29,103 nucleotides of DNA from a virus (taxonomy: Duplodnaviria; Caudoviricetes). Every line of letters starts with the position of its first letter. Within the stretch, counting starts at the first letter, position 1. The stretch spans positions 1-29,103 of the IMG/VR virus record IMGVR_UViG_3300012663_000119; one strand, 5' to 3'. Below, in pieces: positions 5,865-23,487 of this stretch. The position numbers and the translations under genes are program-made. The notes beneath the pieces are model-generated. The model had not been told where the DNA came from and did not search any database. It saw only the letters and a list, made by a program, of their open reading frames with translations.

Positions 5865-6509
5865 ATGAGCGGTTGGATTAAATTACACAGACAAATAACT
5901 GATTGGGAGTGGTACGATGACCATAATACATTTAGATTGTTTATGCACTTACTTTTAAAAGCTAATCACAAAGAGCGAAATTATAGAGGGGTTAAAATTG
6001 AAGTCGGTTGCATAATGACTGGTAGAGAATTGTTATCTAAAGAAACTGGCTTATCAGTTCAGCAAATTAGAACGTGTTTAGAACGTCTAAAATCAACCAA
6101 CGAAATAACCGTCAAATCAAATAAGCAAGGTACTATAATTCAAGTAGTTAAGTATAAAGATTATCAAGTAACAACCAACGAATCAACCACAAATCAACCA
6201 ACAAGTAACCAACAAGTAACCACTAACAAGAATGTAAAGAAAGAAAAGAATGATAATAATACATTTACACCGCCTTCGGCTTTTGATGTTTTAGACTATT
6301 GTAAAGAAAGAAAAAACTATGTTGATGCTGAAACATTTATTGCATTTTATCAATCAAAAGGTTGGATGGTTGGTAGAAACAAAATGAAAGATTGGAAGGC
6401 TTGTGTGCGTACTTGGGAAAAAAGTAGTTTAGGCCAAATTAAACAACAAGAACCAATTGAAGATAAATATATGAATCACGTAATGAAACAAATAAACTTA
6501 AATAAATAA
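5865..6509 (+). CDS. Phage replication initiator (lambda O / DnaD-like organisation)
   Basis: GWIKLHR.I.DWEWY N-terminal wHTH, low-complexity T/N/Q linker, and F..P....V..YC...F..FY.SKGW.VG..KMKDWKA.VRTW C-domain. Confidence 0.85.
   Translation: MSGWIKLHRQITDWEWYDDHNTFRLFMHLLLKANHKERNYRGVKIEVGCIMTGRELLSKETGLSVQQIRTCLERLKSTNEITVKSNKQGTIIQVVKYKDYQVTTNESTTNQPTSNQQVTTNKNVKKEKNDNNTFTPPSAFDVLDYCKERKNYVDAETFIAFYQSKGWMVGRNKMKDWKACVRTWEKSSLGQIKQQEPIEDKYMNHVMKQINLNK
6173..6225 (+). repeat. Iteron-like repeats; probable replication origin inside the initiator gene
   Basis: AACCA cores at 6173, 6185, 6196, 6207 and 6218 (11-12 bp period), followed by an A-rich tract. Confidence 0.65.
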
Positions 6510-6512
6510 ATT

Positions 6513-6779
6513 ATGAATATTTTAGAAAAAGCAAATGAGATTGTTAATTTACGATCAGAAGAAAAATCAAGAATGTACGGTGATTTTCATTTATCAATGG
6601 AAAAAACATCAAATTTAGCCTCTATAATGTCTAATAAAGATATTAGTATAAATGATTGCTATAATGTTTTAATTGCATTAAAATTAGCAAGACAAGCAAA
6701 TAACCATAAAGAAGATAATTTACTTGATGCTGTTGCTTATATTGGTTCTTTAAATGATTTTTTAAATAAAAATAAATAA
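6513..6779 (+). CDS. DUF6378-like all-alpha protein, putative nucleotide pyrophosphohydrolase-related
   Basis: IL..A..IV......R.YG.F, LKLAR and H..DN..D..AY pattern. Confidence 0.7.
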   Translation: MNILEKANEIVNLRSEEKSRMYGDFHLSMEKTSNLASIMSNKDISINDCYNVLIALKLARQANNHKEDNLLDAVAYIGSLNDFLNKNK

Positions 6780-6780
6780 A

Positions 6781-7563
6781 ATGAATAAATTTGAAACACA
6801 ATACTCTGATATTATAAATCAAGTATGCAAAAAAGGTAGTAAAGTAATTGGTAGGAATGGTAAGACTAGACAAATAACTGGGGCGCAAATTAGAGCAAAT
6901 TTACAAGATGGATTTCCATTAGTAACAGGCAAACAAATATTTCCAAAAAGTGTAGCTATTGAGTTAGAATGGATGTTAAAGGGCTTTACAAATGTAAAAT
7001 ACTTAAATTCTAGAGGAGTAAAAATATGGAATCAATGGGCAGATGAGAATGGAGATCTTGGGCCAGTTTATGGCCATCAAATATTGTCTTTTAATGGCTT
7101 AAATCAAATCGAGATATTAATTAATGAATTTAAACAAAATAAATTTAGTCGTCGGCTATTAATAAATATGTGGAATGTAAATGATTTACATAAAATGAAA
7201 TTACCTCCATGTCATTATTCTTTTCAATTTGTTACGGACATTAATAATTTTGTTGATATAGTTGTGAGTATGCGATCATTAGATTTATTTATTGGGTTAC
7301 CTTACGATATGGCAATGTATTCTTTAATATTAAGTTCATTTGCAAAAGAATTTAATTTAATTGCAAGAGAAGTAATAATAAATGCGGCTAATGCTCATAT
7401 TTATGAGGAACATATTGGGGCAGCTTCAATTTATTCGTTAAGAACAAAATTTGAGCTACCAAAATTAAAAAGCACTTCTATATTTACAAATTTTAATTCG
7501 GAAGATGTAGAAATAATAAATTATAAATATCAAGAAAGAATTGTAGTATCTGTAAAAAAATAA
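6781..7563 (+). CDS. thyA: Thymidylate synthase homolog with Asn-to-Asp substitution at the specificity site (possible dCMP methylase/hydroxymethylase)
   Basis: FPLVT.K, IW..WA...GDLGPVYG.Q, SRR, LPPCH, RS.D.FIGLPYD and HIY..H motifs. Confidence 0.9.
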   Translation: MNKFETQYSDIINQVCKKGSKVIGRNGKTRQITGAQIRANLQDGFPLVTGKQIFPKSVAIELEWMLKGFTNVKYLNSRGVKIWNQWADENGDLGPVYGHQILSFNGLNQIEILINEFKQNKFSRRLLINMWNVNDLHKMKLPPCHYSFQFVTDINNFVDIVVSMRSLDLFIGLPYDMAMYSLILSSFAKEFNLIAREVIINAANAHIYEEHIGAASIYSLRTKFELPKLKSTSIFTNFNSEDVEIINYKYQERIVVSVKK

Positions 7564-7567
7564 AATT

Positions 7568-7867
7568 ATGAAATTAAAAAACGAATTTGAGCCTATTAGA
7601 ACATGGGCAGGAGAAAAAGGTATTTTTCAAAAAGGTGATGTAAAAACACAATATATTAAATTACAAGAAGAAGCTGGTGAATTAGCAAAAGCAATTTTAA
7701 AAAATGATGAGCCAGAAATAATCGATGCACTTGGTGATTGTGTTGTTGTATTAATAAATTTAGCAGAACTAGCAGGTTATAAACTTGAGGATTGTATTAA
7801 CTCTGCTTATAATGTTATTAAAAGCAGAACAGGTAAAATGGAAAACGGAACATTTAAAAAAGATTAG
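7568..7867 (+). CDS. MazG-like nucleotide pyrophosphohydrolase
   Basis: KLQEEAGELA.AI.K.D..EIIDALGD motif. Confidence 0.9.
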   Translation: MKLKNEFEPIRTWAGEKGIFQKGDVKTQYIKLQEEAGELAKAILKNDEPEIIDALGDCVVVLINLAELAGYKLEDCINSAYNVIKSRTGKMENGTFKKD

Positions 7868-7868
7868 G

Positions 7869-8285
7869 ATGAGAAGATATATAGCAAAAATAAAATTAGA
7901 CAAAGACATTAAATTCTTACCAACAGGTCAATTAGGTGAAAAAATATTTGAGCTTTGGTTTAATGCAAACTATCAAGGCGAACAATTGTTTAAACAAGCA
8001 ATAGACAGAGACTTTCAAAAGATAGATTTTGCTGATGAAAAAGGTTTTACTTATCAAGTTAAAACTACGAGAGCTAAAACATATACCTTTAATTGTGATT
8101 TAGACAACCTTAAAGAACATTTAAAGTCTGAGATATATATATTTATACAAATTGATAATGACTATGCTTATATTGAGCCTATGTATGAAAAAGATTATAT
8201 ATTAACAAATATTAAAAAATCTTTTAAAGAAGACAATCAGTGTTTTATTTACGCTAAAGATTTACAACAGCAAAAACTATTCTAA
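7869..8285 (+). CDS. Putative PD-(D/E)xK-fold nuclease (ATG at 7869 preferred over 7785)
   Basis: G.LGE..F helix followed by IDF......YQVKT. Confidence 0.55.
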   Translation: MRRYIAKIKLDKDIKFLPTGQLGEKIFELWFNANYQGEQLFKQAIDRDFQKIDFADEKGFTYQVKTTRAKTYTFNCDLDNLKEHLKSEIYIFIQIDNDYAYIEPMYEKDYILTNIKKSFKEDNQCFIYAKDLQQQKLF

Positions 8286-9193
8286 TGATTTTAAACAATG
8301 GACACAGTACTCAATACTTAAACGATTATCTGGAGGGAAAAGTTCCCTCTGGATTAAAATTAGGTTGTGACTTAGACGATTTTTTCGTTCATAAGCAAGG
8401 ACAACTAAATGTTTTGTTAGGACACGACAACGTAGGTAAAACATATTTTTTAGAATGGTATTTTTTAGCACTTGCAACAAATCACAATTTAAAGTTTTGT
8501 TTGTTTATGGATGAGAACTATCAAGGTAAAGTAATGCGTGATTTAATTCAAATGTATGCAGGTAAAAAGTTTATGGATTTAACATATAACGAAGTTAGAA
8601 GATACGAAACAATACTCGAAAATTCGTTTAAGTTTGTAGATAATACCAAACGATACACTCCAGATGAATTATTAAACATCTTTGATAAAGCAGAATGCGA
8701 TGTACATTTGATTGACCCGTTCAATGGTTTAAAAACTCCGATGTCTTATAGTTCAAACTACGATGTATTAAACGATTTAAAGCACTTCACAAAGAATGGT
8801 AAAACAATCTACATAAACGCCCATCCAAGTTCAGCAAGTGGTAGACGTTCGGCAGTATATCCAGAAAAACACGGATGGTCTGGAAACGTTATGCCACCAT
8901 TAAAGTCAGACATTGAGGGCGGAAAAGCATTTGCAAATAAGGCAGACGATTTTTTAGTAGTTCATAGATTGACACAACATCCAGATTTATGGAACTACAC
9001 AATGGTTGAAGTCGTAAAGATTAAAGATACAGATACTGGCGGAAAACCAACACTATTAAACGAACCAATGATGATGGACTATAATTTTGGTTTGGGTTTT
9101 AAAGTTAGAGGTAAAGATGTGATAAAAAGATTAACTTTGCCAAGTACAAAAGCAATAGCACCAAATAATTCATTTGATAATTTACCATTTTGA
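8285..9193 (+). CDS. DnaB/RecA-like replicative helicase
   Basis: Walker A GHDNVGKT, Walker B LIDP, AHP and SDIEGG..FANKADD motifs. Confidence 0.8.
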   Translation: MILNNGHSTQYLNDYLEGKVPSGLKLGCDLDDFFVHKQGQLNVLLGHDNVGKTYFLEWYFLALATNHNLKFCLFMDENYQGKVMRDLIQMYAGKKFMDLTYNEVRRYETILENSFKFVDNTKRYTPDELLNIFDKAECDVHLIDPFNGLKTPMSYSSNYDVLNDLKHFTKNGKTIYINAHPSSASGRRSAVYPEKHGWSGNVMPPLKSDIEGGKAFANKADDFLVVHRLTQHPDLWNYTMVEVVKIKDTDTGGKPTLLNEPMMMDYNFGLGFKVRGKDVIKRLTLPSTKAIAPNNSFDNLPF

Positions 9194-21808: not shown

Positions 21809-22236
21809 TGGCAACATTTAAAGTAAAATACGCTACACGTAATAAGTTAGCAAGGTCTTTGCAGAAAGAGATTAAAGACTTAGGTCTTTATCAAGATGGT
21901 GCATTGTACGATTCAATACGTGTGTCTGCAATGATAGGAGATAAAATAAATAAAATAGATATCACTATTAATGCGATGTACTATTATTTGTTTTTAGATG
22001 AGGGAACGAGTAGAGGAATACCGCCTTACTCAATAACTGACAAATGGTTAAGACGTTCTGACGTTAAAGATATACTTGCAGAAGTAACACAAGACTTTAT
22101 TGCTTGGCAGTTTGAACAATTCCCACTTTTGCAAATGGCTAAGATTCTAAACAATCCAATGGTATCTATTAAATTTAACTGGATTGACTCGCCTTATCCA
22201 AATCTAAAAACAGACCCAACAACTGCATTCTTTTAA
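21808..22236 (+). CDS. Probable neck/tail completion protein (HK97 gp10-like)
   Basis: G.LYDSI and YY.FLDEGT motifs. Confidence 0.55.
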   Translation: MATFKVKYATRNKLARSLQKEIKDLGLYQDGALYDSIRVSAMIGDKINKIDITINAMYYYLFLDEGTSRGIPPYSITDKWLRRSDVKDILAEVTQDFIAWQFEQFPLLQMAKILNNPMVSIKFNWIDSPYPNLKTDPTTAFF

Positions 22237-22964
22237 AGTTGTAGTTCAGTCTTCATTGATAGCATATTAAAAGCAAAGATAAGATTCATTTTAAGGACAT
22301 CGTCAATCTTAGTAATGTCCTCATTTGCTAAGATGTAAAGCGTTTTTTCCCACGACCATTTGTTTAGATTGTCTTCTTTCTTTATTTCTTCCTTTTCCTC
22401 ATCGGTCAAATCGTCTTCAATTTCATCTGTTGCTGGTTCTTGGAATAGATTGATATAAACTTCCATAAAGTTTTCACGAAATTTTATATACTCTTGCACT
22501 ATTCCGAATACATCGGTACATTTAACATCTTTAAATAGTTGTTTTCTTTGCTCAATATCGTACTCATACGGCTCCATTACTTCATTATCCCACTCATCAA
22601 AACGTTTCTTTCTATAAACAACGCTACAAATGTCTGACAAGTGAGCGTAATAGTTGTTAGTAAAGTAATGCTCTAAGTCTATAAACTCTCCAACTTTTAA
22701 ATGTTGTAAACCTATGTAGTGCAAATCGGCAATTATCCGATTTACTGGTTTATTTGGGTCACGATTTATGAAGTTAATCTCTTTTATTAGTTCCGTTAAC
22801 TCGTCAAAATCCAAATCATATACATCATTTATGTCAGTATCGGACAAGATGCTTATTGCTTCTACGTGAAAATCAAATATAGAATCGAAAGAGTCAACTT
22901 GTAACCCTTTCAATTCCATAAATTGTTCTACACTTACGTTATTCCACGACTTCGGTAGGTGCAT
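22233..22964 (-). CDS. Hypothetical acidic protein, possibly tail-assembly-chaperone-like; paralog of 22939-23487
   Basis: 243-aa minus-strand ORF; LPKSW..VSVEQF, LKVGEFIDLE and ICSVVYRK segments. Confidence 0.75.
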   Translation of the reverse strand: MHLPKSWNNVSVEQFMELKGLQVDSFDSIFDFHVEAISILSDTDINDVYDLDFDELTELIKEINFINRDPNKPVNRIIADLHYIGLQHLKVGEFIDLEHYFTNNYYAHLSDICSVVYRKKRFDEWDNEVMEPYEYDIEQRKQLFKDVKCTDVFGIVQEYIKFRENFMEVYINLFQEPATDEIEDDLTDEEKEEIKKEDNLNKWSWEKTLYILANEDITKIDDVLKMNLIFAFNMLSMKTELQL

Positions 22965-23487
22965 TTTGTAGTCTGTTAGATAATTTTAAACCAATAAACG
23001 TAGCATAAGGTATTGCAAGTTCAGCAGAAAGAGAACTAAACAATTTAGCCTTTTGTTTGATGTGTGCGTCTGCGTAGTGTTCAGCTTTAGTTAAGTCGTT
23101 ACGCTTAAACAATACCGACATCAAGTAACTAATGTAATTGTGTGGATGGTTAGATACTTGCTTCTCAATCATTTTCATTTCACGCACTGATATTTTCAAT
23201 TCGTCTTCGTGCGATGTGTAAGTATATCCATCTAACTCAATCACTTTACAAAACTCGTTTGATGGTTTTACTTTAGTGTCTGAGAATATCTTAATGTATT
23301 CCACAAACTCGCTAAACTCCAAATCGTACACATCGGATTCTGGTACACCTAAATAAATTAAAAGGTTAGCCCAACGTTCAAACTTTTCTACATCCTCATC
23401 ATTTAAAATACGAGAAACATTCTCGAACTGCTCAATTGTAAATTCATTGATTTCGTTCTTAACATCAAATTCTTTAATTTTTACCAT
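22939..23487 (-). CDS. Hypothetical acidic protein; paralog of 22233-22964
   Basis: 182-aa ORF; INEFTIEQF, DVYDLEFSEF, ISVREMKMIE and LMSVLFKR segments. Confidence 0.75.
   Translation of the reverse strand: MVKIKEFDVKNEINEFTIEQFENVSRILNDEDVEKFERWANLLIYLGVPESDVYDLEFSEFVEYIKIFSDTKVKPSNEFCKVIELDGYTYTSHEDELKISVREMKMIEKQVSNHPHNYISYLMSVLFKRNDLTKAEHYADAHIKQKAKLFSSLSAELAIPYATFIGLKLSNRLQNAPTEVVE

Follow-up and report, generated by a model that had tools for sequence, protein, structure and literature searches.

A known system in which a ThyA homologue methylates deoxycytidine monophosphate (dCMP) is that of phage Xp12, in which all cytosine is replaced by 5-methylcytosine (5mC), so that the DNA resists about 90% of type II enzymes (PMC7653180, PMC9206674). 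The enzyme class is thus already known, as are a residue code and a pyrophosphatase neighbour. In this code (positions as in E. coli ThyA), Asp177 prefers dCMP, Leu143 goes with a methyl product, Asp or Glu at 143 with hydroxymethyl, and Asn169 with a hydroxylase (PMC13326640); works cited by PMC8670742 and PMC13326640 report that Asp177 switches specificity to dCMP. Asp177 also marks the synthases of cytosine-modified contigs, with position 147 as a second differing site (PMC8670742), and five of seven metagenomic Asp177 synthases gave 5-methyldeoxycytidine (5mdC) when E. coli was given T4 kinase; C5-modified deoxycytidine triphosphate (dCTP) is stated there to be incorporated by the cellular replicative polymerase (bioRxiv 2024.12.05.627091). 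Phage T4 modifies dCMP with gp42, removes dCTP with gp56, which raises dCMP and lowers dCTP (PMC8056088), and cuts unmodified DNA with EndoII (DenA) and DenB; EndoII, a GIY-YIG nuclease, leaves hydroxymethylated DNA uncut (PMC2764454). Here we describe a block of four genes at positions 6513 to 8285 of IMG/VR virus record IMGVR_UViG_3300012663_000119 (Caudoviricetes), whose whole length of 29,103 bases is called the window, and compare it with these systems.

The window is a whole virus record (CheckV completeness 99%). Its recombination genes are an ERF gene and an exonuclease gene; it further encodes an initiator, a DnaB-like helicase, NinG, and terminase, portal, capsid and tape-measure proteins. 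Among the open reading frames (ORFs) scanned with Pfam and PHROG, none was recognised as a DNA polymerase, dihydrofolate reductase (DHFR) or nucleotide kinase. An earlier note, made from the letters of this DNA, had proposed a cytosine-modification cassette of four ORFs between the initiator (5865–6509) and the helicase (8285–9193), and all four are present there, the helicase ATG overlapping the nuclease stop codon:

5865 to 6509, + strand: replication initiator / DnaD-like gene, left flank of the slot (PHROG 2514)
6513 to 6779, + strand: DUF6378 protein, 88 amino acids, all-helical; core cassette gene (Pfam PF19905)
6781 to 7563, + strand: ThyA-like protein, 260 amino acids, predicted dCMP C5-methylase (PF00303, 243 bits)
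7201 to 7203, + strand: Leu141 codon (E. coli Leu143), methyl-versus-hydroxymethyl position (ThyA alignment)
7210 to 7212, + strand: Cys144 codon (E. coli catalytic Cys146) (ThyA alignment)
7306 to 7308, + strand: Asp176 codon GAT (E. coli Asn177), dCMP-specifying position (ThyA alignment)
7568 to 7867, + strand: MazG-type all-alpha NTP pyrophosphatase, 99 amino acids, predicted dCTPase; core gene (PF03819, PRA-PH)
7869 to 8285, + strand: PD-(D/E)XK-like putative nuclease, 138 amino acids, start ATG at 7869; optional fourth gene (invariant motif)
8285 to 9193, + strand: DnaB-like helicase gene, right flank of the slot (PHROGs 18375, 239, 19)

In the reading that we prefer, this block likely makes 5-methyl-dCMP and removes dCTP, putting 5mC into the phage DNA; we give this reading a probability of about 0.7. 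The ThyA-like enzyme would methylate dCMP, Asp177 selecting dCMP and Leu143 going with methyl, and the MazG protein would hydrolyse dCTP to dCMP, which would both feed the methylase and remove the competitor. Because no kinase, DHFR or polymerase can be recognised in the phage, host kinases are invoked to carry 5-methyl-dCMP to the triphosphate and host DHFR to recycle folate; this is the weakest step, and its reliance on host kinases means that substitution may be partial. The host replicative polymerase would accept the C5-modified dCTP, as the cellular enzyme does in the work cited above, so that the absence of a phage polymerase is no barrier. Once in the phage DNA, 5mC would shield it from host restriction enzymes, and the optional nuclease may cut DNA containing unmodified cytosine, as T4 EndoII does.

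The earlier note took T4 as its precedent, and the logic is alike, the window side being predicted, but Xp12 is the closer precedent. Both Xp12 (like PaMx74 and contig B5) and the window have a ThyA-family enzyme with Asp177 in the same GLPYD motif and an all-alpha pyrophosphatase directly beside it (PRA-PH in Xp12, MazG/PRA-PH in the window), and the deoxynucleoside monophosphate (dNMP) kinase family PF21448 occurs in neither. However, the Xp12 synthase is only 22% identical. In a quick tree it sits on a long branch outside the window clade, and at positions 143 and 147 it has Asn and Pro in place of the window's Leu and His, so the window clade is no close relative of Xp12. The Xp12 cluster also has DHFR, dCMP deaminase, an HhH-GPD gene and its own DNA polymerase, all missing from the window phage, which unlike Xp12 has DUF6378 and the nuclease-like gene. 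The Asp177 synthases of the MetaGPA studies are similar in that they occur in cytosine-modified contigs, five of them make 5mdC, and PRA-PH co-occurs (PMC8670742; bioRxiv 2024.12.05.627091), whereas the tested enzymes were picked beside dCMP deaminases (bioRxiv 2024.12.05.627091). The parts searched of the MetaGPA supplements (eLife, PMC8670742) hold no match to the window synthase motif. In T4, gp42 has Asp143 and makes hydroxymethyl, and the phage has its own kinase (gp1) and polymerase and scattered genes; the window has instead a contiguous 1.8 kb block with another pyrophosphatase family and a PD-(D/E)XK-like gene. A further likeness to T4 is that related loci carry a GIY-YIG-like domain (the EndoII fold) on the MazG protein. 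E. coli ThyA resembles the window synthase in fold, length and the conserved residues listed below, and differs from it by Asn177 in place of Asp.

The Asp at the Asn177 position, on which the earlier note was built, is confirmed: codon 7306–7308 is GAT and encodes Asp176, aligned with Asn177 of the E. coli ThyA chains (window RSLDLFIGLPYD, E. coli RSCDVFLGLPFN). The catalytic motif PPCH is intact, as the earlier note had also stated, with Cys144 equivalent to Cys146, and the equivalents of Glu58, Trp80, Tyr94, Leu143, Cys146, His147, Arg166, Ser167, Asp169, Gly173, His207 and Tyr209 are all kept. The structural model (pLDDT 96.8) has a TM-score of 0.93 to E. coli ThyA, at about 40% sequence identity. 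Near C5, eight of the twelve residues listed by PMC13326640 are identical to E. coli ThyA, the changes being A142K, Q165M, C168L and N177D. At the three code positions the window synthase reads Asp177, Leu143 and Asp169 equivalents: it has Asp where canonical ThyA has Asn177, Leu141 where the T4 gp42 type has Asp or Glu143 together with Asp177, and Asp168 where the RB69 gp48-type hydroxylase has Asn169. Because Leu143 and Asp169 are kept, we predict a dCMP methylase rather than a hydroxymethylase. Of the two products that the earlier note allowed, 5-methyl- or 5-hydroxymethyl-dCMP, dCMP modification as such is supported, and the product is narrowed to 5-methyl, with 5-hydroxymethyl not favoured.

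In a protein search the synthase falls in a clade of 73 clusters at 51–98% identity, followed by a gap down to 36–45%. Asp occupies the site in 72 of 74 close-clade rows (query included; one of the others has a gap and one a letter not displayed), and Asn occupies it in all 47 next-best matches outside the clade. The Leu143 and Asp177 equivalents (Leu141, Asp176) are invariant in all 59 aligned clade members, as is Asp168 (Asp169). A contig from run X1, which may be the window's own source, spans 7017–7438 with zero differing letters; with Asp found across the clade, Asp176 is therefore no chance change or error. Other changes that are fixed or nearly fixed in the clade relative to ThyA are Phe176Tyr, Gln165Met, Ser180Met and Asp205Asn. 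Both trees place a second Asp clade, from larger phages, beside Asn-type phage enzymes (SH-aLRT 99), which suggests a separate origin; since a single Asp clade is not rejected in the approximately unbiased (AU) test (p = 0.244), we do not claim two origins of Asp177.

These genes are tightly linked. The earlier note had called for a survey of the neighbours of Asp-type synthases, and one outcome that it counted as refuting was that close homologues carry Asn and share no neighbourhood; instead, Asp is the residue of the clade, and the same neighbours recur whether loci are fetched by synthase, MazG, nuclease or DUF6378 (handles such as L001 denote individual loci). Among 88 viral loci fetched by synthase, a MazG homologue (at least 57% identical) lies just downstream in 48/48 with an Asp-type and 0/40 with an Asn-type enzyme. 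DUF6378 occurs in 16 of these 48 and the nuclease in 8; the other 32 belong to larger phages (48–66 kb among the records checked) with ribonucleotide reductase and a MazG fused to an N-terminal domain. Each reverse set comprises the best 80 loci of a longer list, and an Asp-type synthase is present in 79/80 fetched by MazG (1 cut by a contig end), 78/80 fetched by the nuclease (2 cut by contig ends) and 76/80 fetched by DUF6378 (4 cut by contig ends). An Asn-type enzyme is never the nearest synthase in these reverse searches, the apparent exceptions L237 and L255 carrying an Asn-type synthase alongside the Asp-type one. Of 80 synthase matches in cellular genomes, 79 have Asn and no MazG, and the single Asp match has all four genes. 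The four-gene cassette of the earlier note thus stands as a three-gene core with an optional nuclease, which is present in 8 of the 16 close synthase loci.

Two side observations concern the larger phages. A 62-residue protein with an HxQxELMD motif is encoded at 2670–2858 of the window, and its homologues adjoin the synthase–MazG pair in 32 Asp-type and no Asn-type loci; it is possibly the counterpart of DUF6378 in larger phages, although the profiles of DUF6378 and of the small protein next to MazG there match with a probability of only 8.6%. At L055:9980-11596 and 31 further loci, phages bearing ribonucleotide reductase have an Asp-type enzyme as their sole synthase match, followed by a GIY-YIG-like::MazG fusion, and no cultured relative of them was found.

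Synthases were typed in 220 dereplicated loci (of 290). The Asp177 enzymes comprise Leu143/His147 (the window's type), Leu143/Tyr147 (A2), the larger-phage type, a short Asp143 type (type B, resembling MilA and T4 gp42), a type with Gln143 that lacks MazG, and a type with Arg143 whose partner is asparagine-synthase-like. The frame DUF6378–synthase–MazG–(nuclease) accommodates at least five different Asp-type synthases. The clearest swap is seen in L106 and L109, where the same slot holds DUF6378 (87%), MazG (92%) and nuclease (62%) around a 212-residue Asp143/Asp177 synthase; such type B enzymes carry the Asp143 and Asp177 of T4 gp42 within the same frame. Extra genes (a pyridoxal-phosphate (PLP) enzyme, an asparagine-synthase-like gene and unnamed genes) accompany 46/81 Asp143 loci and 0/48 Leu143 loci. 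This pattern fits hydroxymethyl as a modifiable handle and methyl as none, and argues that the frame serves DNA modification. Literature searches found no description of an exchangeable frame, of synthase swaps or of a role for DUF6378, and subscription papers may bear on this.

Several of these loci merit separate mention. At L125:1948-4588 and in many type B loci, three genes (297 residues, 303 residues and a PLP-enzyme homologue of about 280 residues) lie between DUF6378 and the hydroxymethylase-type synthase and are a candidate cytosine hypermodification pathway; the 303-residue gene has no match in the PDB. At L130:3520-5570 (also L146, L148, L159 and L252) a divergent Asp177/Arg143 synthase stands with an asparagine-synthase-like amidotransferase within the frame, and at L113:3882-4946 (also L139, L147, L149 and L153) an Asp177/Gln143 synthase adjoins the nuclease only, without DUF6378 or MazG.

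Of the two pyrophosphatase-like genes in the earlier note, the assignment is upheld for MazG, and for DUF6378 it is not established by profile or fold searches. The MazG protein matches PF03819 at 35.6 bits (cut-off 22) and PRA-PH above cut-off too, and it matches PDB entry 1vmg (E 4.6e-5), with its acidic motif QEEAGE...DALGD aligned. Its substrate is inferred to be dCTP, from the linkage and by analogy with T4 gp56. MazG is fused to other unnamed domains of about 90–100 residues at L017:9767-10354 and in L238, L246, L283 and L291, and one of these domains is also a free ORF beside the cassette in L001. DUF6378 matches PF19905 at 45.6 bits (cut-off 27.1), and its model (pLDDT 84.5) consists of helices only, with an invariant cluster of basic and acidic residues. 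No MazG-family Pfam match was found in 68 DUF6378 members and no Foldseek match at E 0.001; the best Z in VIA was 7.5, and MazG 1vmg (Z 5.3, rmsd 3.3, 61 aligned) lay within background. Elsewhere, DUF6378 is fused to thymidylate synthase, dUTPase, uracil-DNA glycosylase, MazG and PRA-PH domains. DUF6378 may also resemble nucleotide-modification-associated domains, on which a search by term gave nothing of relevance. Its likeliest role is to bind or hydrolyse a pyrimidine nucleotide of this pathway.

The E...D...QxK motif that the earlier note had read in the fourth gene is borne out: Glu24, Asp53, Gln63 and Lys65 are invariant in 11/11 aligned homologues. The protein has no match in Pfam, PHROG or the PDB, and the nearest named Atlas clusters (Bsp6I, DUF6998, DpnI and PDDEXK_16, at 0.91–0.92) are restriction-type and serve as a lead only. 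Among 170 dereplicated loci with an Asp-type synthase and MazG (of 234), 62 carry the nuclease and 50 carry an N-terminal MazG domain in its place; the two never occur together, 57 loci lack both, and 1 locus is cut. This exclusion has a Fisher p of 2e-5 without the larger-phage clade, and is confounded by lineage and by the way loci were fetched. The MazG N-terminal domain matches T5orf172 in 22/23 tested, above cut-off in 10; we take T5orf172 to be a member of the GIY-YIG clan. By analogy with EndoII, two unrelated nuclease-like modules alternating at one position suggest a role in cutting unmodified DNA; our literature searches found no description of such an alternation. Against such a role, one third of loci do without either module, and some Tevenvirinae whose DNA is canonical have DenA homologues too (PMC8056088). 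The nuclease may instead be a passenger, for example of a homing or recombination type, that does not discriminate C from 5mC, and we rate this as only somewhat less probable than the opposite. It would concern the fourth gene alone and is compatible with 5mC synthesis by the other genes. Its absence from half of the close loci, its lack of a family assignment and its having the highest crude dN/dS of the four genes (0.24) fit a passenger, whereas it is never found without an Asp-type synthase apart from the two loci cut by contig ends, spans five synthase types, and alternates with the GIY-YIG-like domain.

Whether the phage DNA becomes modified was approached through seven C-containing palindromes (GATC, CATG, CTAG, GCGC, CGCG, CCGG and GGCC), chosen post hoc, with the cassette masked and loci dereplicated. 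Outside the cassette carriers avoid them less, their observed/expected ratio (O/E) being 0.56 in carriers (n = 20) and 0.31 in non-carriers (n = 14; p = 0.022), which is indirect evidence for modification; the contrast was strong before masking and dereplication and is weak after them. A/T palindromes do not differ between carriers and non-carriers. The window has 8 of the seven-palindrome sites in 27 kb outside the cassette (O/E 0.03), a scarcity that is a sign of heavy restriction pressure on the lineage.

A number of points weigh against 5mC synthesis by this block. On the DNA side, all twelve C-containing 4-mer palindromes give 0.72 in carriers and 0.65 in non-carriers (p = 0.18), and the window itself, as just noted, avoids the seven almost fully. 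The dNMP kinase PF21448 was found in 0/25 records, Xp12 included, which for the window agrees with the earlier note's remark that no such kinase is visible; in the published assay in E. coli, T4 kinase was provided (bioRxiv 2024.12.05.627091). A crude P-loop scan, whose pattern would miss some kinases, gave no hit beyond the helicase motif in plausible window genes; in 105 Asp loci of at least 10 kb it gave 2 ORFs, both unrelated. The missing kinase is a weak counter-argument, because the same search finds none in Xp12, which is fully substituted with 5mC. On the synthase side, Xp12 makes 5mC yet has Asn at position 143 (and Pro147), so the Leu143 rule is a correlation only; mildly adverse is that the window enzyme keeps His147, though position 147 separates modified from unmodified contigs in PMC8670742. 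Neither Asp clade has a cultured relative above 45% identity among 50,697 phage records (best 42–45%). As regards MazG, the family is common in phages whatever the synthase (989 records), so that it does not fix the substrate; homologues at 46–54% occur without a synthase in L114, L115, L117 and L118; the type C loci (n = 5) lack MazG; and the modified contigs of the MetaGPA table are enriched for PRA-PH (50 vs 179) and not for MazG-like (0 vs 64) (PMC8670742). Finally, the locus sets overlap and contain near-identical genomes, so the counts are not independent events: the link is tight, and the number of origins is not given by it.

Some of these points would be explained if dCMP is methylated but little or no 5mC reaches DNA, either because 5-methyl-dCMP is deaminated to thymidylate, as a side road to dTTP, or because it stalls without a kinase. 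The lack of PF21448 and the window's avoidance of C-containing palindromes both fit, and a dCMP deaminase is present in L001, the closest locus (synthase 92% identical), and in 12/80 DUF6378 loci; deaminases selective for 5mC that feed dTTP are known beside such synthases (bioRxiv 2024.12.05.627091). The L001 gene (L001:9123-9515) lies two genes upstream of the synthase and is itself a candidate 5mC-selective deaminase. We nevertheless consider this outcome unlikely. No dCMP deaminase occurs in the window or 23 other cassette-bearing viral records, those studied so far accompany modified DNA (bioRxiv 2024.12.05.627091), PF21448 is missing from Xp12 too, and the frame also carries hydroxymethylase-type synthases with extra genes, in a slot shared with DNA methyltransferases.

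Two other explanations place the difference in the synthase itself. Were the enzyme to act on dCMP but yield 5-hydroxymethyl-dCMP or another C5 product, as in T4, Asp177 would be equally expected, being common to T4 gp42; the other fixed clade changes near the site (Q165M, C168L, Glu at 63) and the two of seven tested Asp177 enzymes that gave no 5mdC (bioRxiv 2024.12.05.627091) leave some room for it. The retained Leu143 and Asp169, the full ThyA length and fold, and the absence from all 48 Leu143 loci of the extra genes seen with Asp143 loci make it very unlikely. Lowest of all we rate an ordinary thymidylate synthase that tolerates Asp177 and converts dUMP to dTMP, with MazG sanitising dUTP. 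Its closeness to ThyA, with His147, Trp80 and Tyr94 kept, speaks for this, as does its being the sole synthase match in 24/25 records searched. The reported switch to dCMP by Asp177 (works cited by PMC8670742 and PMC13326640), the strict association of MazG with Asp-type enzymes (48/48 vs 0/40), the exchange of the gene for a hydroxymethylase-type one within the same frame, and the separate Asn-type synthase of L237 and L255 all argue against it.

With 5mC synthesis preferred, we turn to how the block came to be where it is. In a slot survey of 35 loci fetched by helicase, 16 loci with a 96–99% identical helicase have none of the four cassette genes (L099 has little upstream DNA). L094 is an empty allele, in which a 95% identical initiator joins the helicase start directly. 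Other alleles hold an N6/N4 methyltransferase (nine loci, three by Pfam and six by likeness), a C5 methyltransferase (three loci, one confirmed), an ATPase–GNAT block (four loci), or a pair of PAPS-reductase-like and ParB genes (one locus). In run X1 another allele is joined at 8285, alongside the cassette-bearing one. The GC content is 26.5% in the cassette and 33.3% in the rest of the genome, and the cassette, with 6% of the length, holds 11 of the 19 sites of the seven palindromes (binomial p = 2e-9), whereas other slot inserts in the seven closest relatives checked hold 0–2. Because the palindromes are concentrated in the cassette, unlike other inserts at the slot, the block is likely a recent import from a genome that does not avoid these sites. 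In most other carriers the cassette immediately precedes the initiator on its upstream side, so a location between initiator and helicase is not itself the conserved feature. Crude dN/dS values of 0.05–0.24 across the four genes (0.10 for the synthase against L001) indicate that all four are maintained; no promoter or terminator signals above chance were found, and among the sequencing runs listed as containing the sequence none was of RNA. The only close cellular match of the synthase is on a 9.7 kb contig of a Flavobacterium metagenome-assembled genome, which has all four cassette genes and the helicase, and the host is therefore likely a member of the Bacteroidota.

Two of the alternative alleles deserve description. 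The ATPase–GNAT allele (L095:5094-6875; also L096, L102 and L104) consists of a small ORF, an ATPase–GNAT acetyltransferase fusion and a 119-residue ORF, and is possibly a different DNA-modification module. At L090:5896-8154 the slot holds a PAPS-reductase-like DUF3440 gene with a ParB gene. Elsewhere in the window, 680–1456 encodes a stand-alone 3'-5' exonuclease (PHROG 403) that adjoins an endolysin gene, in a phage without a polymerase, and is kept in cassette-free sister phages; at 22233–23487, two reverse-strand ORFs (243 and 182 residues) lie within the forward structural region and have no PHROG match.

A wider picture can be drawn, which taken as a whole we hold to be speculative and rather doubtful. 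The block would be a 1.8 kb plug-in moving among 30 kb Bacteroidota phages, with a fixed frame of DUF6378, MazG and nuclease and any of at least five dCMP-modifying synthases. Modified cytosine would act as the antidote to a nuclease (PD-(D/E)XK, or GIY-YIG fused to MazG) that destroys host DNA and cassette-less co-infecting sister phages, and a phage lacking polymerase and kinase would rewrite all its cytosines in one swap. DUF6378 would supply an undescribed step, and the Gln143 and Arg143 types, the latter with an asparagine-synthase-like partner, would make undescribed cytosine derivatives.

What is added here to the known enzyme class is a slot that among sister phages is filled by this block, by other DNA-modification genes, or by nothing. 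The natural gene swaps could serve directly as test material for the synthase family's residue code; they also link DUF6378 and a nuclease family that has no name with modified cytosine, that nuclease being a candidate for a small enzyme that tells C from 5mC. Many 'thymidylate synthase' annotations in Bacteroidota phages probably belong to enzymes that do not make thymidylate. If 5mC synthesis by the block is correct, whole-genome cytosine modification would extend beyond the larger phages that encode a polymerase and a kinase; it would travel as a block of 1.8 kb and, in small aquatic phages, compete with ordinary DNA methyltransferases for a single slot.

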